This document shows, piece by piece, positions 3,557 to 53,583 of a DNA stretch of 64,000 bases (positions are counted from its first letter, which is position 1; every line of letters begins with the position of its first letter). The notes under the pieces were generated by a model, which searched no databases, was not told where the DNA came from, and saw nothing but the letters and a program-made list of their open reading frames with translations. A program made the position numbers and the translations under genes. Location: contig CAYLHO010000002.1 in the NCBI GenBank assembly GCA_964383665.1, positions 2,544 to 66,543 of the forward strand. The letters are read 5' to 3'. Source of the stretch: an uncultured Lachnospiraceae bacterium. Its GTDB lineage: Bacteria > Bacillota > Clostridia > Christensenellales > UBA1242.

Positions 3557-3583
3557 TCAGCGGCTTTGGTCGCTGATTTTTTT
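3557..3583 (+). terminator. Terminator hairpin after the tRNA
   Basis: TCAGCG-gctttggt-CGCTGA followed by TTTTTTT. It abuts the stop of the convergent NUDIX gene. Confidence 0.55.
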
Positions 3584-4238: not shown

Positions 4239-4299
4239 ATTAACCTCTTTTAAAGTTTTTTAAAAAATTCATCACATTAAACTCTTTATCCATGTCTAA

Positions 4300-4329
4300 A
4301 TTATAACATATTTTAAACTCTTTTGTTAA
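4300..4329 (-). promoter_or_regulatory. Promoter candidate for the NUDIX gene
   Basis: The minus strand reads TTAACA, 18 nt, TGt-TATAAT (extended -10). Confidence 0.35.
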
Positions 4330-4379
4330 TAAAATCAAAATTTGATTTTAAAGTGAGGGAACGAGGCGGGGTTAGTGAA

Positions 4380-4408
4380 TAAAAAATGCGCAAGTTGAGT
4401 TGCGCATT
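4380..4408 (-). terminator. Rho-independent terminator of the gatCAB operon
   Basis: ATGCGCAA-ctcaac-TTGCGCAT on the minus strand followed by a T-run, immediately after the gatB stop at 4413. Confidence 0.7.
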
Positions 4409-4412
4409 AATT

Positions 4413-11511: not shown

Positions 11512-11556
11512 GAAAACTGGAAACAATTTTGTTATGAGAAATTTTCCAGTTTTTTT
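11512..11556 (+). terminator. Hairpin plus T-run overlapping the lipoprotein start codon (terminator-like or translational structure)
   Basis: AAAACTGGAAA (11513-11523) pairs perfectly with TTTCCAGTTTT (11543-11553). The 19-nt loop contains the ATG at 11534. A T-run follows. Confidence 0.35.
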
Positions 11557-24119: not shown

Positions 24120-24641
24120 TTAAACCATTTCTTTTTCTGAGGTTGGTTTTGGCGTTTGTTGTGTGTTAATTGGTTTTGCTAAAGTTTCTTGAACTTTTGC
24201 AGAAGCAATTGCTGCGTTTTGCGCTTTCAAGTTATCAAGTTTTTGTTGAAGAACTGGAATTTGCTCATAGGCCGCAACGGCTTCCTCAGCTTCTTTTGCA
24301 TTTTGAGCTTTTGTAATTATCTCGCTCTCATCTTTGAAATCGTCCTTAAATGAGTTTGAAATTATTTTTGAAGCTGTGTAGTTAAAAACAAGGAGCGCAG
24401 GGAAAACAACGCCAAGAACTGGAGAGAAAGCAAATGCAAATGTTAAAAGCATAAGAGGAAAGAATGTGAAACGAAGAAGACACTCTGTTTGCTCAAAAAG
24501 TTTTCCGGTTATTGAATATGTGCTTTTAAGGGTTTCATAACTGCTATATTCCTTAACTCTTTTTGCATTAACTGCTTTTCTTAATTCTTCTTGTTTTCTT
24601 TCTTTTTCTTTTTTAAGTTTTTTTTGTTCTTCCGCGGTCAT
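24120..24641 (-). CDS. Hypothetical membrane protein (charged coiled N- and C-terminal segments flanking a TM hairpin)
   Basis: RBS AAGGAG. TM region is LLRFTFFPLMLLTFAFAFSPVLGVVFPALLVF. K/E-rich segments flank it. No family was recognised. Confidence 0.75.
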   Translation of the reverse strand: MTAEEQKKLKKEKERKQEELRKAVNAKRVKEYSSYETLKSTYSITGKLFEQTECLLRFTFFPLMLLTFAFAFSPVLGVVFPALLVFNYTASKIISNSFKDDFKDESEIITKAQNAKEAEEAVAAYEQIPVLQQKLDNLKAQNAAIASAKVQETLAKPINTQQTPKPTSEKEMV

Positions 24642-25686: not shown

Positions 25687-25714
25687 TTGAATTCGACATA
25701 AAATGCACTATTAT
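25687..25714 (+). promoter_or_regulatory. Promoter candidate for the giant-gene operon
   Basis: TTGAAT, 16 nt, TATTAT, about 65 nt upstream of the ATG at 25779. The region is very AT-rich, so alternatives exist. Confidence 0.3.
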
Positions 25715-25778
25715 ATATAAATAAATAAGGGTGAATAAATAAAAAATTAATTTTTAGGAATAGTAACACGGAGGAAAC

Positions 25779-28700
25779 ATGAAAAAATTTTTGGGGATTG
25801 TTTGCAGTTTGGTTTTAGTTATCGTTGCTGGATTAACTTTCACGGCTTGCGGGAAAGGCGTTGCAGAGATAACAATTTCTTCAAGCGAAACAGAAATCGA
25901 CCTTGTTATTGGAACGGACGAACAATCCAAGGACGTTGAATTTTTTGTTGACAACTTTGGAAACGGAAGTGGGCAAGTTAACTTCAGCGTTGAAGAAAAC
26001 GAAAAAGGAGTTGTTTCTTTCGAAACCAGTTATAAGGGAAATGGAAAAACTGTTTTAACAATAACAGCGCTTCGCCGCGGAACAGCAAGAATTGTTGCAA
26101 CAAGTTTGCAGGGTTCAAAGAAAGTTGTTTTAACAGTTAGAGTTACTCAACCAATAACCGGGCTTGACCTTAAAAACGAATACGTTAACAAACTTTATGT
26201 TATACGTGGAGAAGAACTTATACTTTCTCAAGATGAAATTTGGAAATACACTCCTTCCGAAACAAACCAAACAGAATTGGAATTCTCAATTATTGGTAAT
26301 TCCCAAGGTTGCGAAATTGTTGATGGAAAACTTGTTGTTGGCGAAAATTGCCTTCTTTCAAGCGTAACAATTAAAGCAGTGTCGGCGCACAATGCGGAAA
26401 TTTCTGAAGAGTTTGAGGTTAAAATTCTTAAACCAATTGAAGTTATAATGCAAATTGACGGCAAAAGAGTTGTTGACAATGTTACAAGCGAAACAACTCA
26501 AATTCTAAATTTCCTTGAGATTTTTCCAAGGGAACTTGACGGATCGATCTATCCAAACAGCAAAGAGGTTCTCTTAATTGTTAGTGCTGGAACGGAGAAC
26601 GAAACCTTAAACATTAAAAAGATCTTTTCGTCGGAAGAGGAAAAATTCAGCGTTGAACAAACAGCTTATTCGTATTCCTCTGCAACGAAACTTCATATCT
26701 ATAAATTTTTGATTCAAGCAAATTCAACCGAAGCGGGGAAAATTGACTCGGTTGTTTTCGATGTTTCATACGATGGATTCAAAGCGGGGAACAGCGATTA
26801 CAGTGTTAATTCGGTTAAACTTAACATCAATTCATATAACAAACCTCTTTCTGTTGAGGTTAACGGAGAATCGGGAACAACAGAGGTTGACGTTTTTGAA
26901 AATTCTGTTGATTTTTCAAATGGAAAAATGATTGAACTTTCAATCCTCCCAGGAAATGTTAAACTTTCAGAAAACAACATTATTATTTGGGCAGAAGATT
27001 TCGCAAATCTTCCAATTTCTCTTTACAAATTAAATGCAACAAGAACAGGATATGTTTGCGTTTTTGGATTTGACCAAAAGGGAAACCCTGTTGGGGCAAA
27101 TGAACACGGAATTAGATATGCATCAATAACCTCGGGAACAAAACTCTATGCATTTATTAATTCCAACTATAATTCAATTTTGGGCACAAACAAAACAGCA
27201 AAAATTTACGCACAAGCATCGGGTTTCTGCAATTTCACTGCAAATTCAACAGCAAGAGCATTAACAACAATTAATTTCGTTATTAATCCAAATGCGAAAA
27301 ATATTTCGCTTGCAGAAAAGGACGAGGAAGGCGTTTTAACAAAAGTTGACTCAACAACAATTTTTGTTGAAATTGGCAAAGAAGTTGAAAAATATATTGC
27401 AATTGATCCAAATTCTTTCACAATTGGATCAAATTCCATAATTAAAATTGCAAACGGAAGAATTGCAACAATTGGAAATCTTGTTGAATTTGCTGTTGAC
27501 AAGGATTATGTTTATGGAAAATTCACAATACAGGCAAATAAAGTTGGTTCTTCAACAATAACAGTTATTCTTTCCGACGGGAAAACAAAAGATTTCAATC
27601 TTGTTGTTGTAAGTCCGCTTGAAAAGATTGAAATGGACTTGGAAGATGTAACTTTTGGCGGAAATGTTGTTGAAAGCGATGTTGTTCCATATAAAAACAT
27701 AACAGACGTTGAAGTTTCGGTTGGCGAAACATCTCCTTTTATTGCACTTAACAAACTTTCAATTGCAAATTCGGGCGGAAGCGGAATTCAACTTGTTAAA
27801 ACATTAACTCCATCAACTGCTCAATATTATTTAACTTATCAATTTAAAGATTTCACAATTCCAGAGGGTGAAACGCTTAAAACTTTAACACTTGACAAAG
27901 TTAAAGAACTTTATGGCGACGATTTCGACAATATTTGGGGCGAAACAAGCGACATTCTTAACACGTCCCGCCTTAGCAACCTTTCAATTCTTGAAGCAAA
28001 AAACAGCGGAGCGCAAGGAAATGTGCTTATTAAAATTGCAGTTTTTGCAATGAACTCTGACGGAGAGTATGGAACAGAACCTGTTGGATACTTCTATTAT
28101 TTAGTTAATTTCTTCATTCCGGTTAAAGGTTTAACATTAACAAATGGGACTCTTGAACTTTACACGTATAACACAATTGGCGATAAATTTGTTGATAAAA
28201 ACGGAATAAGCAAATCAATTAGTGAGTTTTCCGTTACTGTTAACCCAGTTAACCAAGGATTAACTCCTACTTATTTAAATAGTTTAGAAATATACGTTAA
28301 CGGAGCTTCAAGATTAACAAATGCAATTTTTGAGGAAAGAGATAATGTTGTTTATCTTTCAAAGGGCGGGCAACTTGTTTCTGGGCTTGAAGGAGCAGCG
28401 TTAAAAGTTACAAGAATTAAAGACGGAAACACTTTCACATTCAAGGTTCAAGCCTACAATGGCGCAGGAAACTATATTTTTGCTCTTGTCCTTTCTGAAG
28501 TTAATGAATCAAAACGCTTCACAGCAATTTCAAGAATTGTTGTTTCCGATGCTGTTGAAATAACAGACATCGACATTGTTAATGCAAGCGAAAATGATCC
28601 AATCCACTTTAACAATATAATTCAATCAAGTGGGGAAGAGGAGGCAATTAAAAATCCGTTTGAACTTGAACTTATCTCTAACATTTATGGACCGGCGGGG

Positions 28701-31700
28701 AAAGAGATAACAAATTCATCTCTCGAATTTGAAATATATTGGGATAAATTGAGCGAAAAAGACTATTTTATTAACGAAAATGGCGAAAAAGTTCAATTTG
28801 CAACAATTTCAGAAGGAAAGTTAACAATTAAACGCGGGGCATATGATTTCAGCGAATATTTTGAGAAATCAGAGGAGGAAAGAGAAGAATTAAATAAAGA
28901 GGATTTCAAGAAGTTTGTTCAATTTGGCGGCGAAGGATATTTGAAAATTTACCCAACCTCAAACTACTATCTTTCAACAAACGGCTGGAATGGAGAAAGA
29001 CCAGTTGTTGAAATTCCGGTTTCTGTTTCCGATGGAAAAACAATTTCATTCTATATTTTAAGCAACGAAGATTTTTTGCTTTTAGGACAATTCCCAACAT
29101 CAAGCTTTGAACTTCGCGCCAACGTTAATGTTCCTTCAGATTATGTTCCTGTTGAGGAATTTTCTGGAACATTAACTGGAGGGGAATCAAGAGCCTTTTC
29201 AATTGGCGCTTGGTGTCCGCTTTTCAAGAAAATAACAACAACTGGTGTTGTTGAAAATTTCTACTATATGTTTGAAAGCGAAGAAGAAAATACAAACGAA
29301 ATGCTTGAATGTGTTAGCGTTGAGAATGAAACAACATATTTTGGTGGACTTGCAAACATTAATGAAGGAACAATCCGAAACATTGGCGGAACTTTGGAAG
29401 TTTCAGATGGCTTAAACTTGAATGTTTCTTTAACAACTCTTGTTAACAAAAGAAAGGGAACTTTAAGCAACGACATCTTGTTTTTGCCTGTTTTTAAAAC
29501 TGGCGATCAACTTAACCGAAACACAACATTTGATTCTGTTTCTCAACTTATTGGAGGCGAGCTTGTTAAATATACAGGCGGGCTTGTTGGGCTTAACAGA
29601 GGATTGATTGAAGAGGAGAAAGAAAACGTCCATTATTGCGCTGCGGTTTACGGCGCAAACGTTGGCGGAATTGCAGCAGTTAACGAAGGAACAATTCGAA
29701 ACACAAATTTCTATGGCGTTGCTTATGGAATTGAAACGGCAGGTGGAATTGCGGCTCTTAACAGCGGCATAATTACAAATTGCGATGTTTTAACCATGTC
29801 GCTCTTTAACATTGGCGTTTACATTGCTTCCGAAAAAGCATATTCCTACAGTGAAACTCCAATTGAGTTTGCAGTTGGTGGGGTTGCAGCAAAAAGCAAT
29901 GGCGGGGTTATTTTAAACTGCAAAGTTGAGGCTTCTTCCGACGAGAGATTCAACCCAGACATCTTTGAAAGTTTGATCGATGTATCAAAAATTGATAAGG
30001 AAGTTTATTGCACTGTTAATGGAAAACCTTTTGGAACAGGAAAATATAGCTCGAGTTTTAATATTAACAATAAAACATTCGAAATTGAACGAAAAAAATA
30101 TACAATTGACGATTTAACAAACCCAACAAAGATAACTTACACTCAAAATGGAGAAACAGTTGAGATTGCAGTTGTTGATAACAAATTTATGCTTGGTAAT
30201 GCAGAATTTGTTATAAGCGGGGATAAAGTTGTTGGAAGCGCAAATTTTGTTAGCAGAACGATTTATGCCGGCGGACTTGTTGGAATTTTGGAAGGAACTG
30301 GCAAGATTCAAGAAAGCATCTTCAGCGGTTCTCTTGCAGTAAAACAAGTTGCTTCGGGTGGATTTGTTGGAAAACTTGTTGGCGACGGACATTCTTCAAC
30401 AACGCACGTTGAAAACTGCTATGCAATTGTTGCTTATGATGAAAGCGATTTAAATCTTGGAATTTCGAACGGACAATTTATTGGCGTTGGCGACCTTTCT
30501 GAAATTAAAAATTCCTATATTTCATCAAACGGAACATTTGGAAATGCTGGGCAAGGAACGGGAAATGTTGTTTTCTCATATTTCAAAAGATCAAGCAACG
30601 AAATCTCAAAATTCCTTGAACTTTCAAACATTTACGCTCAAAATTCTTCTTTTAGTGGCGATTACAGTGCTATTGATTTAGATTACGGCTTAACTCTTGA
30701 AGATTACCTCAAGATAAGCTGGGCAGATTTATATCAGAACGGGCAAATTAATTACACTGTTGACACAACTGGCGAAAACGCTGAAATTTTTGGAACAATT
30801 ACGATGAGCGGGCTTGAAAGCGACCCAACATCAACGTTTAACTTCAGTTTCTCACTTGACAAAATGCAAAATAACGAAGTTGAACCCGTTAAATTCACTT
30901 ATAAAAATATAGAATATGATATTACTATAATTGATAATTCAAGTTACCATTGCCTCAGAATTGAAGCAAATGGGGAAAGCAGCGTTGATTTTACAAACGA
31001 CTCTTTCTCAACAACATGGTCAAACATAAATTTCAACAAGAACCTTAACAATGTTGTTTCTGAAAGTTATGATTTTAGAATAAGCGATTTTGTTTCTTCA
31101 ATTGCTCATGCAACAAATTCTGCTTATTTGCCTTTGAATTTCAATGTTGAAATTGCAGGCGAAGGATATGATAGACAAATTCAACCTTCTGTTTTAGATA
31201 TTGTTTATGCTAAAATATACTTTGTTTGGATTTACAACAATTTTGATGAAATCGTTTCAAACGAAGCTCTTTCAAGTTTGCTTGGAGCAGGCGAGGAATC
31301 TCTTACAACCGAACAATATCTTTGCCGAATTTTTGGCATTGATGAATCGCTTGGCAGAGATGAAATTAAGCAACAAATTGGAAATATTATAACAACAGTT
31401 GTTCTTTCTCAACTTAACTCTGGTTTTGCAGACTTAAAAACGGATATTGCTGGGCTTAAACAAAATGTTACAAATCTTCGACCACAAATTGTTAATCTTA
31501 TAAACACAATCAGCCCATCGGCTGCCGCAATTTATGATCAACAACTTGCCGAAATTGAGGTTTTAATTGAAAAGGGTATTGCATTAACTTCGTTAAGCGA
31601 GATAACCCTTGAAAACATTTCAAGTTTCAAATTGCAACTTGATTACATAAGTGGCGCGCTTAATAAATTTGCTAATTTGGTTATGAACACCCCAATTGAC

Positions 31701-34700
31701 GGAAGCGAAGCAATTGATGAAGAAATATATACTCTTTGCGACGGAGCATTTGTTAAAATTTTCTACGCTTCAACAATTAACATGAACATTGGGAACTTTG
31801 CTCATGCGCTTACAATTGTTGATTTAAGTTTTGCAAATTCAGACATGCCAACATTGCTTGAAGGCTTTAAAACAGCAGGTTGGGATATTGAAAACATCAA
31901 CGAAGAATCCAACAGCGTTTGGATTTATGAAGACGGGAAACTTCCAACGTTAAGAAACAAAGAACTTGCAAAGAGAATTTCAAGTTTTGAAGTTGGAGTT
32001 AAAGAAAACAATGATTCTTGGCGTTCATATGTTAACGCAGGAAAAACAAGTCTTGTTTTGTTCAATTACAGTGTTTTGGGAGAACTTACAGGAAATCAAC
32101 AAGCAATTCTTAACAATTTGAACACAATAAGCCTTGAAAGCATTTTTGAATTTACGAACATTAACGGAACAGATGAAACTGCATCAAGCAATCTTTTCGT
32201 AATTCAAAGCAGCAACAAGAGTGTTGTTCAAATTGTTGGCGGAAAAATTCATGTTGTTGGAACAGGAGAAGCAACATTAACGATAACTCCATTACACAAA
32301 GAATTTGGACTTTTAAACAAGGTTGAAAAGGAAATAACGATTTATGTTATTAATCCTCTTGGAAAAACCGAGGTGTTCCAAGGTGTAAGTGCAAAAACAG
32401 ACCCAATTAATGGGCAAGAAATTTCAATTTATAAAAACGAATTGAACTATATAACAATTGCAACAAAAACATCAATTTCTCTTGGAAATCAACAATTCAA
32501 TTTTGTAACAAATGCAATGGGTTATGAAATTAAACTTAAAGATAACGACATAAAAGCTTTGTTTGGGATTAACGGATTGAATGCTGGGGCAGATGCCGAT
32601 AAATTTGCTGAAGGAACATTAACAGTTAAGCCAAACGAAAACGTTGACACAACAAAAAAATATGAATTCATTGTTAAAGCCCTTTTGCAAAAGGAAAATC
32701 AAAAATTCAACAATGTTTTATATTTAAAAACGTTCATAAACGAAGTTAATGAAATCCTTTCACAAGTTGAATCCGACGCAGATTTTGAAGCGGGAATTCT
32801 TATTAAAGCAGAAAAGGTTTTAATTTCGGTTAAAGATGCGGAAATTGATCCTTCAAGCATGGTTTCTGTTGATTTTGAACTTCAAACAACAAACACAGAT
32901 GACAAACTTATTATTGTTATTCGCGATGAAAACAATAACGTTATTTGGGTTTCGGAAGATGTGACAATTGATGGACTTAAATATTATAAAGATAACAACA
33001 GCAACCTTTTTGAAATCAATCCAACAATTGGAGAATATAGCAGCGGAAGAAAGAATGGAACGGTTTTAATCAGCATTGATGAAAGCAAACGTAGCAACGT
33101 TGTTAAAACCAGCACCTACACTGTTACTTTTAGCGACAGCAGTTTGGAAAAATCTTCGCAATTAACATTAAAACTTAAACCACAAGAAATTTTAAATGTA
33201 ACTTATGTTCACAACAACAGAACAGAGGATTCAACAGAAAATGGAATGAAACTTCAAGCAGAACCAAGCTCTGTTTTGATGCCGGGCGATTGCGGGCTTC
33301 TAACAATTGGGCTTTATCCAACATATTCCAATTTCAAAAGAATTGTTTTAACAAGTCAAATTGTTGATGGGCAAAACTACATTTTGCTTGAACAAATGTA
33401 TAATTCGGGCGAATATTACATTCCTGTTTCATTAACGACAGGATATTCAAGCGTTCGCGACGGAAATGTTTTAACAATTAACAAACCGTCAGATCCAAGC
33501 TTGTTATCTTCGGGAAACATCTATGTTAGAACAAAAATGCTCGACACAGTTAGCGAAGGAATTTACTTCCCAATTAACATAACAATAATCTGTGAAGATG
33601 AGAACGGAAATGAATACGTTTCTAAATCGGAAACAATAACCCTTCTTTCCGAAACAATTGATGGCGCGCAAATAACAGTTAATGGCGGGAAAGATGCAAC
33701 TTTAACAAGAGGTAACACATTCCCAATTAAGGTTAGCGTTAACCAAAATCAATCGCTTGCAACCGTAACTCCGGTTAACTTTAAAAATGGGGAATCAAAA
33801 TACGATTTTGTTTCAACCTATTTCAACACTGCGGAATATGAAATTGTTGACGGAAGAAAAGTTTACAGCGGAACAATAACAATTGGGCTTGACGCCGAAA
33901 TTGAAGATGATGGAGTTTTCAAACTTCAAACAGTTGTTAATAAAGTTATTAATGGAAAATATGAAACTGCAATAGATTCAGTTGAAATTCGTGTTGTTGA
34001 TTTCCTTGTTGAAGGAATTAAGATTAAAGGCAATGCCGATGACGACAATGTTTTCAACACCCCAGCGGCAATTGAAAAAGAATTGGAGTTCGAATTCGTT
34101 CTTTCAAAAACTCCAGAAGCAATTGAATCCGATCAAGAAAAATCAATTGCAAGAATTAACAATGCGAAAGAAGAATTTGTTAAATCTGTTTCATTAAAGC
34201 AATATTTCAACGAAAATCAGCAATTTGCTATCAACACCGACAGGAACTTTGTTGTTAACGGCGAACATGAAGGAGATAAAACAGTTCCATCTCATTTGTC
34301 AAACACAAACAGCAGTTTGGCATACGACTTGTTCTTCACAAGCGACATGACGCAATATATTAACAACTTGACTGGTGAAGTTCAAGAAAGTAAATATTTC
34401 AACATTAAATATAATGGCGATAAAAATGGAAACAGCATGTCGTCAACAATGCTTAAGATAACAGGAAAGTCGGTTGGAAGCGTTGGAATGACAATTAAAA
34501 TTGGCTATCGTGTTCCGGGGCTTGACTATGATCAATACGTTTTATACAACTTTGTTATCAATGTTCAAATCTATTCCGACGAGGACAAGCCAACTCCAAT
34601 TGAAAATGGCGAGCAATTTGTTGAATATCTGTCGGCAGGAGAAGCGCAATATTCTTCAACAAACTTCATTTTGATGAATAACATTGTTCTTGAAAATTTT

Positions 34701-43460: not shown

Positions 43461-43500
43461 GAAAATTTAACCACTCACGAAAAATTTAAGGGGAAAAAGA

Positions 43501-46500
43501 ATGAAGAAAAGAATTTTTAGTTTATTAGTTTTAATTCTTGTTGCGGTTTGCGGCGGCGTTTTTGCCGCCTGCACCCAATCTGGAGGCGAAAATGTTTCAA
43601 TTAAGGCTGTCAGCGGGCTTGACAGTCAGATTTCGCAAGAAAAAATTGATTCAATTTCGAATGAAATCTTGCTTTCGGAGGACGAGAAGGGGTTGCTTTC
43701 AAGCGGCTTTGGTTACAACAATTCGGTTAAGGACGGAAACACTGTTTCGCTTGTTGTTGGAAGCGAAACAAACGGTTCGCGCGAATTGATTTTTGAAATT
43801 GAAAATTATGTTGACGGCATGAGCGACAAGATTTTTGTTTCAAGCGATTCAACTTGTGTTCAAATTTCTGAAATTGAAAGTGCAGGGAAGGGCAGACAAA
43901 AGTTTACTATAACTGCTTCCTCTGCGGGCACAGCCGAAATTGTTATTAAAACCGGGCAATATTCGAAAACAACGAAAATTGTTGTTAAGGCAATTGAAAA
44001 GCTTTCTTCATTCGGCGTTAAAACCAACGCAACAATTTTCCTTGAACGCGGAAAGGAACTTGAGATTTCCCCTGAAAAATTCCTCAATTTCTTCCCAAGC
44101 GATTCAAATTTGAAAGAAGTTGAATTTTACGACGGCAAAACACTTTTAACAAAAGACGGAAAAACAATTCTTTCAACAAATCCAAGTGAATCGGCAACCG
44201 GAGTTATTTCGGAAAACAAAGAGTTGACTGTTAAATCTTTAAGATTGACAGGAAGCGGAAGTGTTCAAACAATTTCAGTTGTTATTGTTGATTCTCTTGA
44301 AAACCTATCCATGAAAAAGCTTGTTTATTCAAACAACTTAAAGACGTTCCCAGAATTTGAGAATGGGAAAACAATAACAGTTATTCGAAACGTTTCTCTT
44401 GGCGAAATTAACTATGGAGTTAGAGAACTTTATGTTCTTGTTGACTGCGCAGAGGAAGACCTTGAAATTGTTGCAACTGCAAAAGGAACCGACCTTTTGG
44501 TTACATATTCCGACAAGGAAAGGATAACTTCTCAAAATCTTTTGACATCAAAGTTTGGAAACCTTATTGATTCCCCTCAAGGAGAGTTTTCAACTTGGGT
44601 TTTCAAATTTGAGCTTAAGTATGAAGGAATTTCAAATTACGAACTTGAATTTGGGTTTAAAACTGGTTCATATAACTATTCAAACGTTTTAAACGCAAAT
44701 GTTGAATTCAAAAGTGCGTCGAACCTTGTTAATTTTGCTAAAGCGGGGGAAAGCGAGGACTTTTCGAACACCTACACAATTTATGACAACTACATTGGAA
44801 CATTTGGAACGAGATTTGTTGTTTCAACAAACACAAGCGATGAATTTTCGAAAGCGGAAATATCACTTTTAATTTCGGGCGAAAATGCGCTTGGATTTAA
44901 AGTTTACGATGTTGTTGGAGAGGAAAAGGTTGGAGTTGCTGCGCTTGGCGTAACAAAAATTTCTCTTAAGAGCGGCGAAAACTTTTTCATAAAGGCAAAC
45001 GAGGGGCAAGTTGGAACATTCAAATTGACTGCTCGTGTTGCATATGTTTTTGAGGGAGTTGAATTTGTAACCGAAAAGGAAATAACCCTTAAAGCGGTTA
45101 ATTCCCCATCAAATTTCTTCTTTAACAAGGAAAACGGAGAGGAAATTTCGGATTATGTTTTCGATCTTAACACAAGCGGGAAAATTATTTCTGGGATTAA
45201 GCAAACAGAAACTTATGCTGAAAGGAATTCGTTAACTCTTCAAATTAATGGATATGTTGGAAGCGGGGCGCTTACGGGTGCAATTTCAGATTTCTCAATT
45301 GTTTCCGCTTCTCCAATTTTGCAAGTTACAAAGGACGGTTCAAGAATAACGCTTCTTGCAACGGGAACTGGAACGGGAAGTTTCAAGATTTTAACCGGAA
45401 ACGGAATTTCAAGAACTTTCAATTTCACGATTATTCAAAGCATAAGCGATGCAAAAGTTTTTGTTCCAACTCCAGAGCAAAACACAAATGTTATTTCAAT
45501 CCTTTCGAACTATAACTTTGACTCAACAATTTACGACCAATATGCAATTGTTAAGAAAAACACATTAATTCCTCTTGTTGTTTCGGCAACTGGCGAAGTT
45601 GTTACTGTAACTGCTGAAGGAGATGGAATTTCTTATTCAAACGGAAGAATAACCTGCGAAACAGAATTTAATAAAAATGAACTTGTTGTTTCGTTAACAT
45701 ACAAATATGTTGAAGATGATGTTATTGTGACTCAAGCGGTTGTTGTTCAAAAAATATTGATTTCCTCAATTGTTGAAATTGAAAACTTTAACATTTCAAC
45801 AAGTTATGGCTCGTCAATTTTCAGTTTGTATGATTACTCAACCGTTGGCTACTATTCGCGAAATCTTGCAATGGCAACTTTGCAAATTAACATTCTTCCA
45901 AACGAAATTCGAGAAGAAATTTTCAAAACAATCAAATTTTCATCGAATATAGATGCGAAATCTGAAATTGACACCGAAGACCAATATACGTTGGTAACAG
46001 ATGTTTTCACGTTTACATTCTACAGAACAGGTGCAAGCGCGGGAACAGGAACATTGATTTGCGAAGTTAAGGATTCAAGCTTGCTTAACGAAAACGGCGG
46101 CTTGAAAGCCGGGAAAGTCACACTTCTTGCAAGCATCGATCGTTCGTTTGACATGTCGGAAGGCGGGAATTTTGTTAAATTTATTCAATTTGACGTTAAA
46201 AGCGCGAAAAAGGTTGAAGTTATAAGCAGTCAAACAAAATCTATTGAACTCGATTCTTTCATAACTGAACGTAAAATTGAAGTTTCAACCTATCCTCTTG
46301 GGGCAACAAACAGCATGCTTTCATATGTGTTTATTCCAAAAACTTCCGGACTTAAAGAAGGCGATGTTGAAATTGTTAAACTCTCTGACGGAATTCATGT
46401 TAGATTGACCGATAAAAACGTTTCGGGAGAGGGGGCTATTCGAATTATTGCTTTCGATAGTTTCACTTCTGCAAGCGATTACACAAATTATCTTGACATT

Positions 46501-49500
46501 CCAGTTGTTATTTCAAACGGAAGTCAGCAATTCCCATATTACATTAACTTTGAAAGTGATGTTAGGAAAATGGTTGAAACCGGATTTGAAAAATATTACA
46601 TCATTTCGGGAGAAATTGACCTTAAAGATGTTCAATGGGAAAGTTCAAAATATGTTCTTTCCGGAGGAATAACTGGAATTAACAATGCAAAATTAAAAAA
46701 TATTAACGTAACAAACATTCTTTGGGAAGACTCAAGCAAACAATATTTTGGCGGATTGTTCACCGAAATTGGCGGAGAGGCATTCATAAGGAACTTGGCA
46801 TTTGAATTTGAAAGCGTTAACTTCGAAATTTCAAGCGCCAACGATTTGGATCGTGCTCCATCATATAATGGTTTCCTTGGAACAATTGCAGGGAAAAACA
46901 ATGGAACTCTTGAAAATGTTTCGGTTGTTGGGAACATCAATGTTTTAATAAGCGGCGGCTACACTCTTAGCGTTGGTGGGCTATTTGGAGAAAACTTGAG
47001 ATCAATTTTAACTTCGGTAACAAGTTCTTCAAGAAACACAACACTTTTCACAGGGAAAATAACAGTTGTTGATGCATCAATCAGCGCGGGTGTTTCTCAC
47101 ACGCTTTATGTTGGAGGAGTTGCCGGGCGTAACTCGGGCGGAAGAATTGAACGAATTGTTGAAAGCGGACTTGTTGAATTTAACAATGCTTTTGCAACAA
47201 CAAATGTTTCAATTGTTTCAAAATATGAACTTGAAAGTTTTGTTCCAGACACTGAAAACGTTGAAGGCTTTGGAGCAATTGCAGGGTTTAACAGATATCA
47301 AAGTTCGGCTATTGTTGAAGAACAACAGGGAATTTTCAACGTTTCTGTGATTGGCGAAATTTTTGCCGAAAAGTTTAACAATGTTGGCGGAATTGTTGGA
47401 AGAAATGATTGCCAAGTTGTTGGAGCTCGCTCTCAAGTTTATGTCCGCGGAATGAATAACGTTGGCGGCGGCGCAGGGTATAACAATGGAACGCTCACTT
47501 CAATTATTGTTGAAAGCACATATAAAACTAGCCGCAACAACGAGGCGCAAGCGGCGCTTGTTGTTGGAGCTAACAATGTTGGCGGAATTGTTGGACTTAT
47601 GGACGGAGGAAAACTTGAAAGTTCATCGTTCATATCATACATAAGCACAACTCAACCTCTTGTCGACTTGATTTCAAGCGGAAATTATGGACGAGTTGTT
47701 GCCGCGCAAGTTAGAGACGAGGAAGGAAACCTTAAAGGAATTGTTAACTTTGTTGTTGCAATTGCAAATGTTAAAATTCAATCAATGGCAACTGTTGTTG
47801 AAACAGAACTTGAATCGGCAAACTACGCAATCTTTAACCGCGGAAATGCATCTGAAAAAGCAGAGTTGTTTAAAGGGGCGGGTTCAAAACTTGAAGATGA
47901 GAACGTTGTTGGAAAAACAAAAACTGAACTTAAAGGAACTGAAGGTTTTGAATTCATTTTCATTCCAACAGATGAAATTGGGCTTAAATTAACAGAAAGC
48001 ACTGAAAAATTTGAAATGGGAACAACTTCTGGCGGAAATGTTGCATTTTACTTATATTATTACGGGAACTTGAACAGCGAAGTTGCTTCTAAAAACACTT
48101 TAAACCTTTCAGCACTTTTAACAAGTGAGATTGGAAGCAGATTCCAAGTTTCTTCAAGTGACCCATCAATTATTGAAGTTTCAACATTGGGGCAACTTGT
48201 TGTTAAGAAAACGGGTTATGTCGTTTTAACCGCAACAAGCGAATATGTTGACGAGGGGAAGGATCAACAAATTTATATAAAGGTTATTAATTATACTAAC
48301 AATTTATCTATATATCTTGATTCAAACAAGGCAAATGAAATTAAAAACGATGAAAACGGAAAAATTGTTTTTGACGCAACGGAAAGTAAACTTATTTATG
48401 TAAGTTTCTTGGATAAATTTAACATTTATAATTTAACAAATCCTTCCGACATCAAAATTTTCTTAAAAGTTAAAAACCTTGAAACAGGAAATGAAGAAAT
48501 TGTTAAGCCAGATGACGACCGAAAAGATGGAATTGTTTTCCGTGTTATTAAAATAAGTTCCGATTCATATCAAATTGCAGTTTATGGTGAAATTGGGAAC
48601 TATGGAATTGAGGTTGTTCCATATGTTGAATTTGTTGGCAACGATGGAAAAACTTATGTAAGTTCAACAATTGCGCACGAACTTATTAACGAATTGGACG
48701 CTGAATTTGGACTTAACGAAACTGTTAAAACAAACTTTGAATTTAAGAACACAACAAAATCAATTAACGTTTCAAAAGATATTATTATAACCGAGCCATA
48801 CTATGAAAAATCAATTGATGTTATTGTTAATTCAATCAACGAAAATGAAACAATAACAATTTCGGCAATTCAAGTTGATAAAAACGGAAATGAAATCAAC
48901 AAAAACCTTTTGGCTCTTGATTTAAAAGTTGTTTATGGAGGGGTTGAAACAACCGGCTTCCCACAAATTCAACTTGAAATGAATTGTAAAACAAATAATA
49001 AATTTGGAATTTCTGTTAAAGTTAATGAAGAAAAGATGATTTTTGAGGGGACTCAATATTTCATAATTAAAATCGTAAGCTCGAATGGAAAAGAAGCAAA
49101 CATGAAACTTGAAATTCAACCTCAAAGTTTGATTTCAATTTCAACAACACTTTACCCAATAATTTCACAAGACGAGTTGAAATATAACTTCAAAGGAAAT
49201 TTCTCATATATTCCAAGTGGAGTTATCATACCTGGACAAAATTCACTTATTGAACTTTCGTTAACTCCAGAGTTTACCTATTTTAAAACAATTGAAATTG
49301 TTAACAAATCCTCAAATGAATATAATCTTGTTTTTGATTTGTTCAACAGATCAAGTGGGGTTGTTTCGGGCGCTAAATCAATTGAGAACGGAATATCAAT
49401 TGATCGAGAGCTTATTAATGGCGGGAGTTTTGCTTTAAGGACCTTTGCCGATCAACGACTTTCCGACAATTCAAATGTTTCAATTTATATTATTCTTAAA

Positions 49501-52500
49501 GATGAAAATGGAAACCAAATTGGCGACATTGTTGAAAAGACATTCTATGTTGAGCATCTTCCAGGAGTTATGGTTTCAATTGATGGCGTTTCAAGCGGAA
49601 ACGAGGGAAGCTTGCTTCTTGCTCAAGGCGTTTCGTATGATATGAACGTTTGGGTTAAGGGATATAATTCTGGGGCATACTCCAACGCAGGGTCGGTTAT
49701 AACCGACGGACAAATTGTTTTGGAGGTTCAGGGTTCAGAACTTGTTTCAATAACACGCGATTCAAACGGAAACTATAAGTTGAAAGTTTCTACGAACGAA
49801 CTTGGAACAGACAGAACAGTTAAAATTAAGAGTTATGGAGTTAACTCGAAAGGCGAAAGAAGCAAAGAAGTTGTTTTAACAATTGAAATTGTTGAATTTG
49901 TTGTCAAAACCGACAATGTTGGCGACATTCTTAAGGAAACGGTTAATAATGTTTATGCTTCTGCAACTGGGAACACATATATGCTTGAGGTTGCCCTTAA
50001 TTCCGACATTTTGATTTTTGATAACACAAACTCAAGAATTAAGGAAAGTGTTTTAAAATTCCTAGACAATCTTTCAACGCAAAACGATGAAACAAAAAGT
50101 ACTGTTTGGCAAATTAAAGATAATGGCAAACAAGCTCCAAACTTTGTTTCAATTGGCGGCGACTCATTTGCAGGCGCAGGAAGCAAGAAAACATATAAAA
50201 CAACAAACAATGCTTTTGAAGTTACATATAACTCGCAAACAGGGAAGGCATATGTTAAATTCTTAAAAACTGAAAGTTCTGCAGCGCCAACCTTTCAAGT
50301 TAGATACGAAGGAAAATTCTATTACGACCAAAACGGAAAACCGACGGCTGGCGTTGAATCGGGCAAGAATATTTACACATTAACTCAAATTATCTCGTTT
50401 GATATTTCCGAAAAAACGAGTTTAACAAATCCATATCCAATTTACACTTATGAACAATTTATGGATATGAGAGAAAACAACCATTATATATTGATGGAAG
50501 ATATCTATCTTGATGAGAATTTCTCTCCAATCTCAACGAAAATTGCAATGCTTGATGGAAACGGACACAGAATTTTTGTTCCATCAATAAGTTTGAGCTC
50601 AAGCGAAACAACGTCATTAAGTTTTGGACTTTTTACAAAACTTTCTGAAAATGCACTTTTGAAAAATATAACCTTATATATAAACGGCACAGTTGAAATT
50701 AACATGTATAACTTCACATCTGTTAACTATGGGCTTCTTGTTGCCGAAAATGAAGGGAAAATTACTAACTGCTCAATTGAGGGTTCAACTTATGCAATTG
50801 TTAATCTAAATTTGTTTGGAACAAATCCTTCTTCAAACATCAACTGTGAAGTTGGAGGTCTTGTTGCAATCAACAATGGCGACATAACAAACAGCCGAGT
50901 TGAAGTTGGAATTTCAATTAACTCGGTTAAGAGTGCGTTGGTTGGTTATCTTCCAGCAAACCTTGGAGGACTTGTTTCAATTAACAATGGTTCTGGAACA
51001 ATTTCGTCTTGCTATGTTAAAGCGAGAATTGAAAACAACACTGCTGGTTCGGTTTCGGCAATAACCGGTGGGCTTGTTTCTCAAAACAATGTTGGAGGAA
51101 AAATTTTCGCATGTTACACAAGCGGCGAATCAACTTTCCCATCCAGCATTGAAGAAGTTAGAAATGCAACCGAAATTGTCTATTCAACGGCAAGCGCAAG
51201 CGGATTTGTTTACACTAACTCTGGAGCAATTTCAAACTGCTATTCCAACATTCCAGTTCGAACAAATGAAGGCGCAAGCGGTTTCGTTTATCAAAATCAA
51301 TCGGGCGGAGAAATTTTCAACTGCTATTCAACATCTGCCTTTGAAAGTTCTGCTAAAAATGGTGCGTTCGTTGGGGTTCTAACTGGGGTTGTTGAAGAAG
51401 AAAATCCAATCCTTAATTCTGGAACAATAACGGAATGCTTTGCATGGGAAGAAGTTGCAGAAATTGGAGTTTCAAAGGTTAACTCTGGTCTTGCAAGCAA
51501 CAAAGGCGCTGTTGTTTCATTAACAGCTAATCAATTTAAACCAAGCAGCGAAGAAAGTGGGAATGGATATTTTGGAAAATTCGCATTCTCAAGCACTGCA
51601 AATAAAACCGACGGTGTTTGGTTCTGGGCGGCAAATGGAACAGAGGCAGAATTTTTAAGAAATGGAATTCAAATGAATTTCTCAAACAAAGCGCCTCAAC
51701 TTGTTTCACCAAACTTAATTGCAAACGCAGTTAGAACTTTAACAAGTACGATTTATGATCCATTAACCGAAACAACAATTTACAACTATGCCTGGGAAGC
51801 AGGGCAAGATGAGGGAACAAAATATAATCCATACATCATCGCAAATCAAGAGGACTTGGAATATATTGTTTCGAAGCAATCAGGCTTTACAAACGGAAAC
51901 ATTATTAAAGACATTTATTGTCGACTTGTTGGGGATATAATTTATGAAACTTCAACGGTTTCAAGCGGACTTTATCAATTTGCGTTCCTTGGAAATCTTG
52001 AAGGAAACTCCTACACAATTGGAAATTATGTTCTCGACAGCTCTGCAAAAATGGATAATGGAGGATTCTTTGCTTCAATTGGAACGGCATCAAATCAAGG
52101 CGGAAGCATTAAAAACTTAACATTTGCTCCAAGATATATGAGTTTAACAAATTGCAATGCAGTTGGAGCAGTTGCCGGTTCGCTTTTTGGAGGAACACTT
52201 GTTAACATAACAATTGATGGAACAACCTACGCCTCCGAACTTGATGGCTTAACTATAATTGGGAAAAACGCAGTTGGCGGAGTTGTTGGGCTTGCCGAAG
52301 GGGCGTTCAATCTTAACAATATTAAATCTAACATTTCGGTTAACGCAACCTATCGCGCAACTCTTAATGGGCATTCAACAAGCGAATATCTTAAATCCGA
52401 TTTAACAAAAATTTCTTATTCTGGGCTTGTTGCTGGAATTGCTGGCGGCTATGGGAACATTGTTTTTGTTGATGTTTATGGAAACAATGTTTCAGTTGCG

Positions 52501-53319
52501 GAAAATGCATCGTTAATGTTTGGATATGTTGGAAAAGATGTTTCCGCAACGCACTTAACAGCAACTGGGTCAATTAACCAGCTTATTAAAGCAGATGTTA
52601 GCGGAGGAGTTGTTGCAGCGCATAACTATGGAAGTTTAAGCGACATAACGGTAATGGGGCTTGATGACCCTTCATATAATGGTTTCTTTGACTCAAGCAA
52701 TTACGTTCCAGAATCTCTTGGAAACATCGTTGGAAAAATGTCGAATGGTTCAATTAAAGATGCAACTGTCTATTCAAAAATTAAAGCGCAAGCAGGAGTT
52801 GATGCTCTTGGAGGTGCGGTTGGAACTCTTGGTGCAGGAAAGTTGGAAAATATTTTGATTGTCGGAAACATTGTTGGAGGAAGTCGAATTGGCGGAGTTG
52901 TTGGGCAAATTCGCGATGCTCAAACAATTGAGCTTGCAAACTGCGCCCATAGCGGAACAATAACTTCTAACTCGTCTTCCGAAATTGTTACTGTTGGAAC
53001 GTTGGTTGGCTTTATCAACAAATTCAATGCTGACACACTTGGCGAAGGAAGAAAAATTAAAGTTTCTTTCGATAACTCAAAATTTTGGACAGACTATAAT
53101 TCAAAATTGGAAAGTGGCATCTACTCAAGAAAGTTGAACATAACAACATACTCAACATCAAACACCGAGGTTTGGTATGGAACAATAGTTTGTGAAGATG
53201 GCAACTTTGAGCGAGGCGTTGTTGATTACGATCAGTATAATCTTGTTGATGACAATGTTTCGTGGTATGTTCCTCTTGCAACGTCAAAACTTATCAATGG
53301 GAAAAATCCAAATGTATAA
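43501..53319 (+). CDS. Giant surface lipoprotein (3,272 aa), paralogous in architecture to the upstream gene
   Basis: It starts 40 nt after the upstream stop with no terminator between. Leader is MKKRIFSLLVLILVAVCGGVFAAC with Cys24. Ig-like units are present (KFTITASSAGTAEIVIKT...). GLUG-like repeats include VGGVAGRNSGGRIERI, VGGIVGRNDCQVVGA, LGGLVSINNGSGTISSC and ASGFVYQNQSGGEIFNC. Confidence 0.9.
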   Translation: MKKRIFSLLVLILVAVCGGVFAACTQSGGENVSIKAVSGLDSQISQEKIDSISNEILLSEDEKGLLSSGFGYNNSVKDGNTVSLVVGSETNGSRELIFEIENYVDGMSDKIFVSSDSTCVQISEIESAGKGRQKFTITASSAGTAEIVIKTGQYSKTTKIVVKAIEKLSSFGVKTNATIFLERGKELEISPEKFLNFFPSDSNLKEVEFYDGKTLLTKDGKTILSTNPSESATGVISENKELTVKSLRLTGSGSVQTISVVIVDSLENLSMKKLVYSNNLKTFPEFENGKTITVIRNVSLGEINYGVRELYVLVDCAEEDLEIVATAKGTDLLVTYSDKERITSQNLLTSKFGNLIDSPQGEFSTWVFKFELKYEGISNYELEFGFKTGSYNYSNVLNANVEFKSASNLVNFAKAGESEDFSNTYTIYDNYIGTFGTRFVVSTNTSDEFSKAEISLLISGENALGFKVYDVVGEEKVGVAALGVTKISLKSGENFFIKANEGQVGTFKLTARVAYVFEGVEFVTEKEITLKAVNSPSNFFFNKENGEEISDYVFDLNTSGKIISGIKQTETYAERNSLTLQINGYVGSGALTGAISDFSIVSASPILQVTKDGSRITLLATGTGTGSFKILTGNGISRTFNFTIIQSISDAKVFVPTPEQNTNVISILSNYNFDSTIYDQYAIVKKNTLIPLVVSATGEVVTVTAEGDGISYSNGRITCETEFNKNELVVSLTYKYVEDDVIVTQAVVVQKILISSIVEIENFNISTSYGSSIFSLYDYSTVGYYSRNLAMATLQINILPNEIREEIFKTIKFSSNIDAKSEIDTEDQYTLVTDVFTFTFYRTGASAGTGTLICEVKDSSLLNENGGLKAGKVTLLASIDRSFDMSEGGNFVKFIQFDVKSAKKVEVISSQTKSIELDSFITERKIEVSTYPLGATNSMLSYVFIPKTSGLKEGDVEIVKLSDGIHVRLTDKNVSGEGAIRIIAFDSFTSASDYTNYLDIPVVISNGSQQFPYYINFESDVRKMVETGFEKYYIISGEIDLKDVQWESSKYVLSGGITGINNAKLKNINVTNILWEDSSKQYFGGLFTEIGGEAFIRNLAFEFESVNFEISSANDLDRAPSYNGFLGTIAGKNNGTLENVSVVGNINVLISGGYTLSVGGLFGENLRSILTSVTSSSRNTTLFTGKITVVDASISAGVSHTLYVGGVAGRNSGGRIERIVESGLVEFNNAFATTNVSIVSKYELESFVPDTENVEGFGAIAGFNRYQSSAIVEEQQGIFNVSVIGEIFAEKFNNVGGIVGRNDCQVVGARSQVYVRGMNNVGGGAGYNNGTLTSIIVESTYKTSRNNEAQAALVVGANNVGGIVGLMDGGKLESSSFISYISTTQPLVDLISSGNYGRVVAAQVRDEEGNLKGIVNFVVAIANVKIQSMATVVETELESANYAIFNRGNASEKAELFKGAGSKLEDENVVGKTKTELKGTEGFEFIFIPTDEIGLKLTESTEKFEMGTTSGGNVAFYLYYYGNLNSEVASKNTLNLSALLTSEIGSRFQVSSSDPSIIEVSTLGQLVVKKTGYVVLTATSEYVDEGKDQQIYIKVINYTNNLSIYLDSNKANEIKNDENGKIVFDATESKLIYVSFLDKFNIYNLTNPSDIKIFLKVKNLETGNEEIVKPDDDRKDGIVFRVIKISSDSYQIAVYGEIGNYGIEVVPYVEFVGNDGKTYVSSTIAHELINELDAEFGLNETVKTNFEFKNTTKSINVSKDIIITEPYYEKSIDVIVNSINENETITISAIQVDKNGNEINKNLLALDLKVVYGGVETTGFPQIQLEMNCKTNNKFGISVKVNEEKMIFEGTQYFIIKIVSSNGKEANMKLEIQPQSLISISTTLYPIISQDELKYNFKGNFSYIPSGVIIPGQNSLIELSLTPEFTYFKTIEIVNKSSNEYNLVFDLFNRSSGVVSGAKSIENGISIDRELINGGSFALRTFADQRLSDNSNVSIYIILKDENGNQIGDIVEKTFYVEHLPGVMVSIDGVSSGNEGSLLLAQGVSYDMNVWVKGYNSGAYSNAGSVITDGQIVLEVQGSELVSITRDSNGNYKLKVSTNELGTDRTVKIKSYGVNSKGERSKEVVLTIEIVEFVVKTDNVGDILKETVNNVYASATGNTYMLEVALNSDILIFDNTNSRIKESVLKFLDNLSTQNDETKSTVWQIKDNGKQAPNFVSIGGDSFAGAGSKKTYKTTNNAFEVTYNSQTGKAYVKFLKTESSAAPTFQVRYEGKFYYDQNGKPTAGVESGKNIYTLTQIISFDISEKTSLTNPYPIYTYEQFMDMRENNHYILMEDIYLDENFSPISTKIAMLDGNGHRIFVPSISLSSSETTSLSFGLFTKLSENALLKNITLYINGTVEINMYNFTSVNYGLLVAENEGKITNCSIEGSTYAIVNLNLFGTNPSSNINCEVGGLVAINNGDITNSRVEVGISINSVKSALVGYLPANLGGLVSINNGSGTISSCYVKARIENNTAGSVSAITGGLVSQNNVGGKIFACYTSGESTFPSSIEEVRNATEIVYSTASASGFVYTNSGAISNCYSNIPVRTNEGASGFVYQNQSGGEIFNCYSTSAFESSAKNGAFVGVLTGVVEEENPILNSGTITECFAWEEVAEIGVSKVNSGLASNKGAVVSLTANQFKPSSEESGNGYFGKFAFSSTANKTDGVWFWAANGTEAEFLRNGIQMNFSNKAPQLVSPNLIANAVRTLTSTIYDPLTETTIYNYAWEAGQDEGTKYNPYIIANQEDLEYIVSKQSGFTNGNIIKDIYCRLVGDIIYETSTVSSGLYQFAFLGNLEGNSYTIGNYVLDSSAKMDNGGFFASIGTASNQGGSIKNLTFAPRYMSLTNCNAVGAVAGSLFGGTLVNITIDGTTYASELDGLTIIGKNAVGGVVGLAEGAFNLNNIKSNISVNATYRATLNGHSTSEYLKSDLTKISYSGLVAGIAGGYGNIVFVDVYGNNVSVAENASLMFGYVGKDVSATHLTATGSINQLIKADVSGGVVAAHNYGSLSDITVMGLDDPSYNGFFDSSNYVPESLGNIVGKMSNGSIKDATVYSKIKAQAGVDALGGAVGTLGAGKLENILIVGNIVGGSRIGGVVGQIRDAQTIELANCAHSGTITSNSSSEIVTVGTLVGFINKFNADTLGEGRKIKVSFDNSKFWTDYNSKLESGIYSRKLNITTYSTSNTEVWYGTIVCEDGNFERGVVDYDQYNLVDDNVSWYVPLATSKLINGKNPNV

Positions 53320-53325
53320 AATAAA

Positions 53326-53355
53326 AAACAAGCGTAAGTTGCGCTTGTTTTTTTG
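53326..53355 (+). terminator. Rho-independent terminator of the giant-gene operon
   Basis: AACAAGCG-taagttg-CGCTTGTT followed by a T-run. Confidence 0.8.
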
Positions 53356-53439: not shown

Positions 53440-53468
53440 TTGACAGAAATGCTTTTTGGTGGTAAAAT
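53440..53468 (+). promoter_or_regulatory. Sigma-A promoter for rpoB-rpoC
   Basis: TTGACA (53440-53445), 17 nt, TGg-TAAAAT (hexamer 53463-53468). The leader to the ATG at 53584 is about 110 nt. Confidence 0.6.
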
Positions 53469-53583
53469 TCGTTTCTGTATAGGCTAAAGTGGACAAAATT
53501 TGGGCATTTTTTAGTTGATCTATATTTTATTTAGGCGAAAATGAGTTTTTTTGCCACTCTTTTTTTTGCTATAAGGAGAACAT

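Follow-up and report, generated by a model that had tools for sequence, protein, structure and literature searches.

The elements from which very large bacterial surface proteins can be built are already known, including arrays of immunoglobulin-like (Ig-like) domains and the GLUG-type beta-helix of the N-terminal domains (N-domains) of M26 IgA1 proteases, in which the helix is a non-catalytic gate of the active site (PMC7695701). Small genomes that encode giant surface proteins have likewise been described before. Giant1-5 of Apilactobacillus kunkeei, as described in the abstract of the study concerned, are surface proteins of 3,000-8,000 amino acids (aa) that are encoded by consecutive genes and take up several percent of a 1.5 Mb Firmicute genome (PMC12863079). 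For giant proteins of the Omnitrophota type, the sections considered of a giant-gene survey propose that they serve to interact with other cells (West-Roberts et al., 2023, 10.1101/2023.11.21.568195). Here we describe two adjacent genes, A and B, that encode giant lipoproteins in a 64,000-nucleotide (nt) stretch of contig CAYLHO010000002.1 from an uncultured bacterium; this whole stretch is called the window below. What is new is the family to which they belong, which is large and unnamed, together with its lipobox anchoring and its fixed, conserved locus in gut Clostridia with reduced genomes. With a probability of about 0.5, we read A and B as lipid-anchored surface fibres for contact or adhesion that represent a lineage-wide family of uncultured gut Clostridia.

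Gene layout, anchor and domain architecture

The features of the locus are as follows, with window coordinates, strand and the basis of each assignment; aa numbers refer to the protein named, ORF stands for open reading frame, HMM for hidden Markov model and pI for isoelectric point.

25687..25714, plus strand: sigma-70-type promoter TTGAAT-16-TATTAT before gene A (consensus scan)
25770..25774, plus strand: Shine-Dalgarno sequence GGAGG of gene A, five bases before the ATG (sequence)
25779..43460, plus strand: gene A, ATG start, giant lipoprotein of 5,893 aa, 638 kDa, pI 4.7 (ORF list, translation)
25779..25850, plus strand: signal peptide of A with lipobox FTAC (Cys24), ...AGLTFTAC24 (sequence)
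25851..28595, plus strand: N-terminal array of about 8-10 predicted Ig-like beta-sandwich domains, A aa 25-939 (AlphaFold, Foldseek, sub-threshold Big_2)
29076..30638, plus strand: first putative GLUG-type beta-helix region, A about aa 1100-1620 (Glug, GG[ILV][VA]G motifs, weak module-HMM matches)
30576..32078, plus strand: hypervariable, indel-rich region, A about aa 1600-2100 (low identity, low alignment occupancy)
34569..35918, plus strand: conserved core, predicted beta-helix module II, A aa 2931-3380 (alignments, AlphaFold, Foldseek)
36036..37388, plus strand: conserved core, predicted beta-helix module III, A aa 3420-3870 (alignments, module HMM 4e-132, model)
38496..40928, plus strand: further GLUG-motif-rich, putative beta-helix region(s), A about aa 4240-5050 (motifs, weak module-HMM matches)
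41445..43148, plus strand: putative C-terminal beta-helix module, A about aa 5223-5790 (motif search, Pfam Glug 21.3 bits, module HMM 8e-7)
43461..43500, plus strand: 40-nt A-B spacer with Shine-Dalgarno-like AAGGGG 8 bases 5' of the B ATG (sequence)
43501..53319, plus strand: gene B, ATG start, giant lipoprotein of 3,272 aa, 354 kDa, pI 4.8 (ORF list, translation)
43501..43572, plus strand: signal peptide of B with lipobox FAAC (Cys24), ...GGVFAAC24 (sequence)
50410..53031, plus strand: B copy of the predicted double beta-helix core, B aa 2304-2738 and 2774-3177 (HMMs 2.2e-70 and 7.6e-31; BLASTP to A 2938-3903)
53323..53353, plus strand: intrinsic terminator after B, 14-pair stem, 3-nt loop and T-run (terminator scan)

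The original prediction, which was made from the sequence of the window, had described two uninterrupted ORFs lying head to tail 40 nt apart and filling 43% of the window, and its coordinates agree exactly with the ORF list. Each ORF contains a single terminal stop only, and together they occupy 27,541 of the 64,000 nt and encode 9,165 aa. The absence of a terminator between the genes, likewise predicted, is borne out by a terminator scan, which found none in the 40-nt spacer, and the strong terminator after B, formerly placed at 53326-53355, was recovered at 53323-53353. The promoter region expected before A contains the -35/-10 pair given above; it belongs to a block, TTTGA(A/T)TTCGACA...ATTATATAT, that is kept upstream of seven orthologues (L003, L004, L005, L008, L009, L056 and L064). 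The Shine-Dalgarno sequence of A is retained as GGAGG or GGGAGG in all aligned orthologues, and in the related locus L075 a comparable spacer carrying an identical AAGGGGAAAAAGAATG precedes the B orthologue. A and B therefore form an apparent operon and would be co-transcribed.

Both proteins begin with a lipoprotein signal, MKKFLGIVCSLVLVIVAGLTFTAC followed by G in A and MKKRIFSLLVLILVAVCGGVFAAC followed by T in B, each with a positive n-region, a hydrophobic h-region and a lipobox of the form [LVI..][ASTG][GAS]C, and this signal peptide is the sole hydrophobic segment in either protein. The lipobox is kept in about 60 orthologous loci and is present at the N-terminus of 114 of 135 long family representatives, and almost all loci of the genome scan described below share its form MKK...L[ST][AG]C; MKKRIFSL...VFAAC is identical in the B orthologues of L004-L009 and L056. 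Diacylglyceryl modification at Cys24 and cleavage by signal peptidase II are predicted for both A and B. A motif search found no LP.[TSA]G anywhere in A or B and no C-terminal hydrophobic segment, and no tile of either protein matched an SLH domain in Pfam at E<=1, so that the earlier description of lipoproteins with neither an LPXTG nor an SLH anchor stands. A lipobox in place of these is an uncommon form of anchoring for a giant Gram-positive surface protein.

The Ig-like and GLUG-like content that had been read from the sequence is barely visible to Pfam, and is backed by structure prediction in the form of two AlphaFold models covering about 2,100 of the 9,165 residues. In the model of A 25-1100, model residues 1-915 are all-beta, with a predicted local distance difference test (pLDDT) score of mostly 70-90, and Foldseek matches this array to those of the S-layer protein SbsC, cadherins, invasin and ICAMs at E values of 1e-19 to 1e-7. 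The Pfam Big_2 (PF02368) match at A aa 57-120 reaches 18.5 bits, below the cutoff of 22.8, but the predicted fold is Ig-like nonetheless. The model of the core (A 2880-3920; mean pLDDT 80.4, predicted template modelling score 0.84) consists of two right-handed beta-helices with a short low-confidence linker between them. Module II, with a pLDDT of mostly 80-96, is the best-conserved part of the family and has a helical head, a DGNN motif and an FYGF...W...LP.L tail, and the head of module III is NPIIIRSADEFNR...YRLV..IDF...FDGN. The only confident Foldseek matches to the core are the IgA1 metalloprotease entries 6xjb, 7uvk, 6xja and 7uvl (probability 0.99-1.00; E 6e-4 for 6xjb), followed at low probability by the folds of lyases, a glucanase, a serine-rich repeat protein (SRRP) and tailspikes.

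Alignments reveal that the recurring module has a helical head, NPIxI.SA.EF...Y.L..DIDF...F.G.FDGNG.TI.N, rungs that bear GG[LIV][VA]G and Asn ladders, and a tail, FYGF...GVW.W...LP.LVSAN. Module HMMs built solely from other species' orthologues, and hence non-circular, match A strongly at 2931-3380 and 3420-3868 and more weakly at about 1100-1620, about 4240-5050 and 5223-5790, and match B strongly at 2304-2738 and 2774-3177 and more weakly at about 1005-1396; HMM iteration on A and B alone is circular after round one and was not relied on. Twelve GG[ILV][VA]G-type motifs, with a spacing of mostly 36-41 aa, lie in A at about aa 4240-5050. The C-terminal module, with the head ...YQLLCNIDL...FSGTFDGNNYVI, is poorly conserved within the family. 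Taken together, models and alignments support a composition of an Ig-like array plus GLUG-type beta-helix modules.

The family is nearly invisible to current domain libraries. Pfam Glug (PF07581, cutoff 20.5) scores 22.1 bits in the first 3,000-aa segment of A and 24.4 (at A aa 1525-1549) and 21.3 bits in its 1,000-aa tiles, its best score in B being 14.2, and a Peptidase_M26_N fragment of 53 residues at A aa 4131-4183 scores 22.5 bits against a cutoff of 27.7. Searches of NCBIfam and sequence and profile searches of the PDB with A and B gave nothing, and Pfam gave nothing meaningful for five other, shorter family members, the lone match being a spurious sub-threshold one to IL22. The original prediction had noted no enzymatic motif and no HExxH, and this agrees with the motif search, which found HExxH in neither A nor B, and with Pfam, which found no Peptidase_M26_C in either; no enzyme domain was matched in A, B or the five relatives in Pfam, NCBIfam or PDB sequence searches.

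A and B had also been called paralogous, and this holds, although the relationship is distant: the two are about 26% identical in A2938-3903/B2311-3193 and at their N-termini, with the aligned segments in collinear order. B corresponds, as a distant and collinear paralogue, to the first two-thirds of A. The possibility that a single ancestral gene of 6.5 kaa had split into A and B was considered and rejected: B carries a lipobox and a core copy separate from those of A, and it aligns collinearly with the N-terminal two-thirds of A.

A large family in uncultured gut Clostridia

A profile search, exhaustive over 1.84 billion representatives, gave 14,746 matches at E<=1e-3; at E<=1e-30 there were 924 cluster representatives. 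Nearly all of the best 150 matches are 5,000-7,700 aa long, with the core at about residues 2,000-3,200. In contrast, a word-indexed search with pieces of 1,051 and 1,100 aa returned just 8 and 2 homologues, badly underestimating the family in comparison with the profile search and a genome scan. All of these close homologues are unnamed or "hypothetical" proteins of metagenome-assembled genomes (MAGs), none of them an already characterised relative, nor was there a match to any common adhesin family that is anchored in a usual way. The scan of GTDB species genomes located 71 loci in 71 species, all uncultured gut MAGs, with record labels such as Clostridia, Christensenella, Ca. Caccovivens, Ca. 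Onthoplasma and similar; the closest genus is UMGS687, with 74% identity in the core. In nearly all of the 71 loci the homologue is one unbroken ORF of 5,255 to >6,970 aa, many of them extending past the fetched stretch.

Full-length orthologues are P0012 for A (5,959 aa, 65% identity) and P0021 (3,270 aa, 77%) and P0134 (3,252 aa, 47%) for B. In five independent Logan assemblies, P0012 and P0021 are separated by 37 nt and have after them an rpoB that is 97% identical to that of the window. A B-type gene comes after A in L004-L009 and L056, whereas the distant members L054 and L073 have a single giant gene, a distribution that marks the family as ancient and vertically inherited and the pair as specific to the clade of the window. 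The question of taxonomic range and conservation of the tandem pair, raised with the original prediction, accordingly has two answers: the family is lineage-wide, but the A+B pair, lying between a PP-loop ATPase gene and rpoB, is confined to the close clade of the window.

The giant proteins evolve far faster than the products of adjacent housekeeping genes. In comparison with L003, LeuS, Cca, GyrA and GyrB are 91-96% identical and A is 37-77% identical, with the minimum of 37% at aa 1501-2000 and 73-77% elsewhere; in comparison with L075, the values are 65% for A, 77% for B and 97% for RpoB. Among 22 full-length orthologues, A aa 2900-3900 are best conserved, aa 1600-2100 (alignment occupancy 0.29-0.40) and aa 5100-5200 are poorly conserved and indel-rich, and the C-terminus is also poorly conserved. 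The presence of intact genes in nearly all of the 71 species' loci and in hundreds of representatives, with the PP-loop neighbour kept, points to selection for retention and supports the reading as contact fibres.

Upstream of A, on the minus strand, lie the PP-loop ATPase gene, a 173-aa ORF, gyrB, a GNAT gene and gyrA, and further upstream, on the plus strand, the gene for the CCA-adding enzyme and a probable leuS, orthologous to that of L003. Downstream of B are rpoB, rpoC and a MiaB-like radical SAM gene, and the window also encodes spoIIR, gatA/gatB and gltX. The gene order of L003 is that of the window, leuS-cca-gyrA-GNAT-gyrB-x-PP-loop-A, and the PP-loop neighbour is kept across many loci. 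In relatives, too, the PP-loop gene, gyrB and rpoB stand in synteny with the giant genes, which are therefore resident and not recently acquired; the original prediction had said the same from codon style and base composition, and guanine-cytosine (GC) content is indeed 0.33-0.41 across the giant genes against 0.32-0.40 in the flanks.

Several further observations concern these loci and their surroundings. The minus-strand ORF at window 578-1219 encodes SpoIIR (Pfam 2e-43), which fits the reported retention of sporulation genes in the family UBA1242 described below. The rpoB leader at window 53440-53583 carries a promoter close to the consensus (TTGACA-17-TAAAAT, extended TG), and its 5' untranslated region contains a terminator-like hairpin at 53534-53555; this leader is nearly identical in L075 despite divergence elsewhere, and could serve rpoBC as an attenuator or regulatory leader. 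Further uncharacterised ORFs lie at window 1290-3377, 10512-11282 and 11534-12367 on the plus strand and at 24120-24641 on the minus strand; they comprise proteins of 695 and 277 aa without a Pfam match, a DUF11 (surface repeat) protein of 256 aa and the 173-aa protein encoded between gyrB and the PP-loop gene, which occupies the same place in L003 with 57% identity. In L003, the A orthologue has an in-frame TGA at 12974-12976 (codon 992), within an otherwise continuous ORF of 3,926 codons; it aligns to a Tyr in A of the window and could be a sequencing error, a true nonsense mutation or recoding. L006 (CALURS010000002.1) is labelled Candidatus Gastranaerophilales (Cyanobacteriota) and has the same PP-loop/giant A/giant B locus, with a core identity of 55% and a GC content of 0.29; this MAG has probably been mislabelled or binned wrongly. 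The L037 contig (URAC01000002.1, UMGS808) begins, at positions 1-41, with an untrimmed Nextera adapter, TCGTCGGCAGCGTCAGATGTGTATAAGAGACAG, directly before the ribosome-binding site of the giant gene. The distant, longer members P0153, P0105, P0130, P0116, P0022, P0043 and P0011 share a glycine-rich C-terminus, SGNG.NG.NG.DG...GA.G.AG.GGNGA.G...GSGG.GGLG, which was not noticed in A or B of the window.

Host lineage and possible function

Ca. Caccovivens corresponds to the GTDB genus UBA11517 of the family UBA1242, order Christensenellales (PMC8035907), and Onthoplasma also belongs to UBA1242 (PMC12306168); both carry the giant family according to the genome scan. UBA1242 genomes are reduced, mostly to <1 Mbp, and are without pathways for making amino acids, nucleotides and lipids, a full glycolysis, an ATP synthase and the usual transporters, but unexpectedly keep sporulation genes, and the organisms are predicted to be obligate symbionts or parasites that obtain most metabolites from outside (PMC12306168). 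The giant proteins are not mentioned in the full text of that study, and the family is not described in the UBA1242 passages of a chicken metatranscriptome study or in the sections searched of the survey by West-Roberts et al. (10.1101/2023.11.21.568195). A UMGS687 MAG has 633,718 bp at a completeness of 73.8% and a GC content of 36.19%, matching that of the window. From these values its genome would be about 0.86 Mb, of which a 27.5-kb pair would be about 3%.

In the proposed mechanism, A and B would be transcribed as one unit from a conserved housekeeping-type promoter, and each product would be exported by Sec, diacylglyceryl-modified at Cys24 and cleaved, leaving its N-terminus in the outer leaflet of the cell membrane. 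The approximately 8-10 Ig-like domains would act as a stalk that could span the wall. Beyond this stalk there would be several right-handed GLUG-type beta-helix modules, including the strongly conserved central double module, with the fast-evolving, indel-rich segments between them facing the environment. The job of such a fibre would be physical contact with partner bacteria, with host mucus or glycans, or with particles. A more specific and more doubtful version, to which we give about half the weight of the general one, is that a Firmicute lineage comprising UBA1242 and its relatives has converged on the episymbiotic or parasitic habit of Patescibacteria and uses the family to attach or bridge to its partners. 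The tiny cell would be docked to a partner bacterium by a lipid-anchored fibre of about 0.6 MDa, in which the double beta-helix core would dock or organise a conduit and the variable segments would set partner specificity; in the clade of the window, the presence of a second, shorter paralogue would broaden or change this specificity.

Some points weigh against contact fibres. Conservation is highest in the centre instead of at the distal C-terminal end, an unusual pattern for an adhesin that binds by its tip; beta-helices occur also in polysaccharide lyases and hydrolases, seen here as low-probability fold matches; and a functional domain could so far have gone undetected in the 77% of residues beyond the two AlphaFold models. 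In addition, the tie of the window's organism to UBA1242 rests here on the shared gene family and the small-genomed closest genus.

The strongest competitor, tentative in itself, is a surface coat or envelope scaffold, in which the proteins would lie along the cell as a lipid-anchored protective layer replacing an S-layer, with variable parts that evade phages and immunity. A conserved centre with variable flanks is more in keeping with a unit of a self-associating lattice than with an adhesin acting at its tip, and the acidic character of A (pI 4.7), the conserved, single-copy gene with its housekeeping-type promoter and the large share of the genome would all fit a coat. The S-layer protein SbsC (4uic, 4uj6, 5ftx) is among the top solved matches of the N-terminal Ig array; however, these matches are generic Ig-array ones that stand beside cadherins and ICAMs, Pfam finds no SLH or other wall-binding module, and S-layer proteins are usually of 40-200 kDa, as compared with 350-640 kDa here. 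An improbable alternative is a giant surface enzyme, in which one or more beta-helix modules would be a polysaccharide lyase or hydrolase or a novel protease, harvesting nutrients or breaching partner walls. GLUG modules are classic companions of M26 and other Zmp proteases, and the sections considered of the survey link giant genes of predatory Omnitrophota to cell-wall degradation (10.1101/2023.11.21.568195). The core also matches the folds of a beta-1,3-glucanase (5m5z), polysaccharide lyase family 6 (PL6) alginate lyases (7o84, 5z9t) and a fucoidan lyase (7xze), but at probabilities of 0.03-0.47 and E>0.09, as compared with 0.99-1.00 for the non-catalytic IgA1 protease beta-helix. Besides the lack of HExxH and of any enzyme family noted above, the listed invariant positions of the core consist almost wholly of Gly, Asn and hydrophobic residues and contain neither His nor Glu, with Asp confined to the DGN head motif.

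A spore structure, namely an exosporium or coat-tether component made in sporulation, is less probable again, even though UBA1242 keeps sporulation genes (PMC12306168) and the window itself encodes SpoIIR. The giant genes sit among gyrB and rpoB, outside any sporulation cluster, and their conserved promoter looks like a housekeeping -35/-10 pair. The promoter consensus of sporulation sigma factors is unlike it, and, although anchoring of lipoproteins to the mother-cell or forespore membrane is known, it is not known to occur at this protein size. Least probable of all, and effectively excluded, is that the ORFs are chimeric or mis-assembled, or are decaying pseudogenes. Some relatives are indeed broken, with the one in-frame TGA in L003, two frameshifts and an N gap in L001, and splits in L007, L061 and L071. 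However, the window ORFs run unbroken over 17.7 and 9.8 kb, orthologous ORFs are intact in >60 independent assemblies, and the complete A+B pair recurs in the five Logan assemblies. Repeat-driven misassembly is very unlikely, because the 28 kb contain no DNA repeats of >=40 nt at high identity and self-comparison shows internal protein repeats to be nearly nil in A and B.

Bacteria of the UBA1242 type occur widely in the guts of humans and animals and remain uncultured; they are predicted to live at the expense of other cells, and no structure that mediates their dependence on partners has been named so far (PMC12306168). The giant gene or pair would cost about 2-3% of a genome of <1 Mb. Because it is costly, kept intact in at least 71 species, fixed beside core genes and evolving several-fold faster than they do, the giant family is the obvious candidate for the interface of the cell with a partner or host. 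As a family of hundreds of 50%-identity clusters of 5-7.7 kaa, it offers a concrete target for cultivation, fluorescence in situ hybridization (FISH), cryo-electron tomography (cryo-ET) and metaproteomics.

Comparison with described systems

The family lacks the defining features of M26 proteases, LPXTG adhesins, SLH proteins and Omnitrophota-type giants, but partial similarities connect it with each of several known systems. Omnitrophota and other giants, as described in the sections considered of the survey (West-Roberts et al., 2023, 10.1101/2023.11.21.568195), are also very large and mostly unannotatable, have beta-helix content and belong to small partner-dependent cells. However, the Omnitrophota proteins exceed 30,000 aa and combine numerous transmembrane regions with a divergent SecA DEAD helicase domain, whereas A and B have the signal peptide only and no such Pfam match; the Clostridia giants in the same sections are RCC1, Listeria-Bacteroides-repeat, YG-repeat or dockerin proteins, unlike the A/B family. 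Giant1-5 of A. kunkeei, compared by their architecture as described, are closer in size, gene arrangement and share of the genome, but they come from bee-associated Lactobacillales and have an N-terminal beta-solenoid resembling the one in serine-rich repeat proteins; no lipobox anchor and no conserved double module in the centre are mentioned in the abstract (PMC12863079).

The Ig-array surface proteins, such as SbsC, invasin/intimin and Big_2 adhesins, share with A and B a tandem Ig-like beta-sandwich stalk, consistent with the weak Big_2 match. This is a generic likeness of fold at 8-12% identity, and the anchoring differs, as A and B have no SLH, LysM or outer-membrane beta-barrel. The N-domain of M26 IgA1 proteases (6XJA/6XJB from S. 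pneumoniae; 7UVK from G. haemolysans) shares the right-handed GLUG-type beta-helix and is the sole confident match to the core, at 13-14% identity in Foldseek. A and B are without the M26 middle and catalytic domains, HExxH, G5 and LPXTG, and have nothing equivalent to the active site that the IgA1 protease helix gates (PMC7695701). Instead, the predicted module is reiterated about five times in A and about three times in B, each copy with its own head and tail caps.

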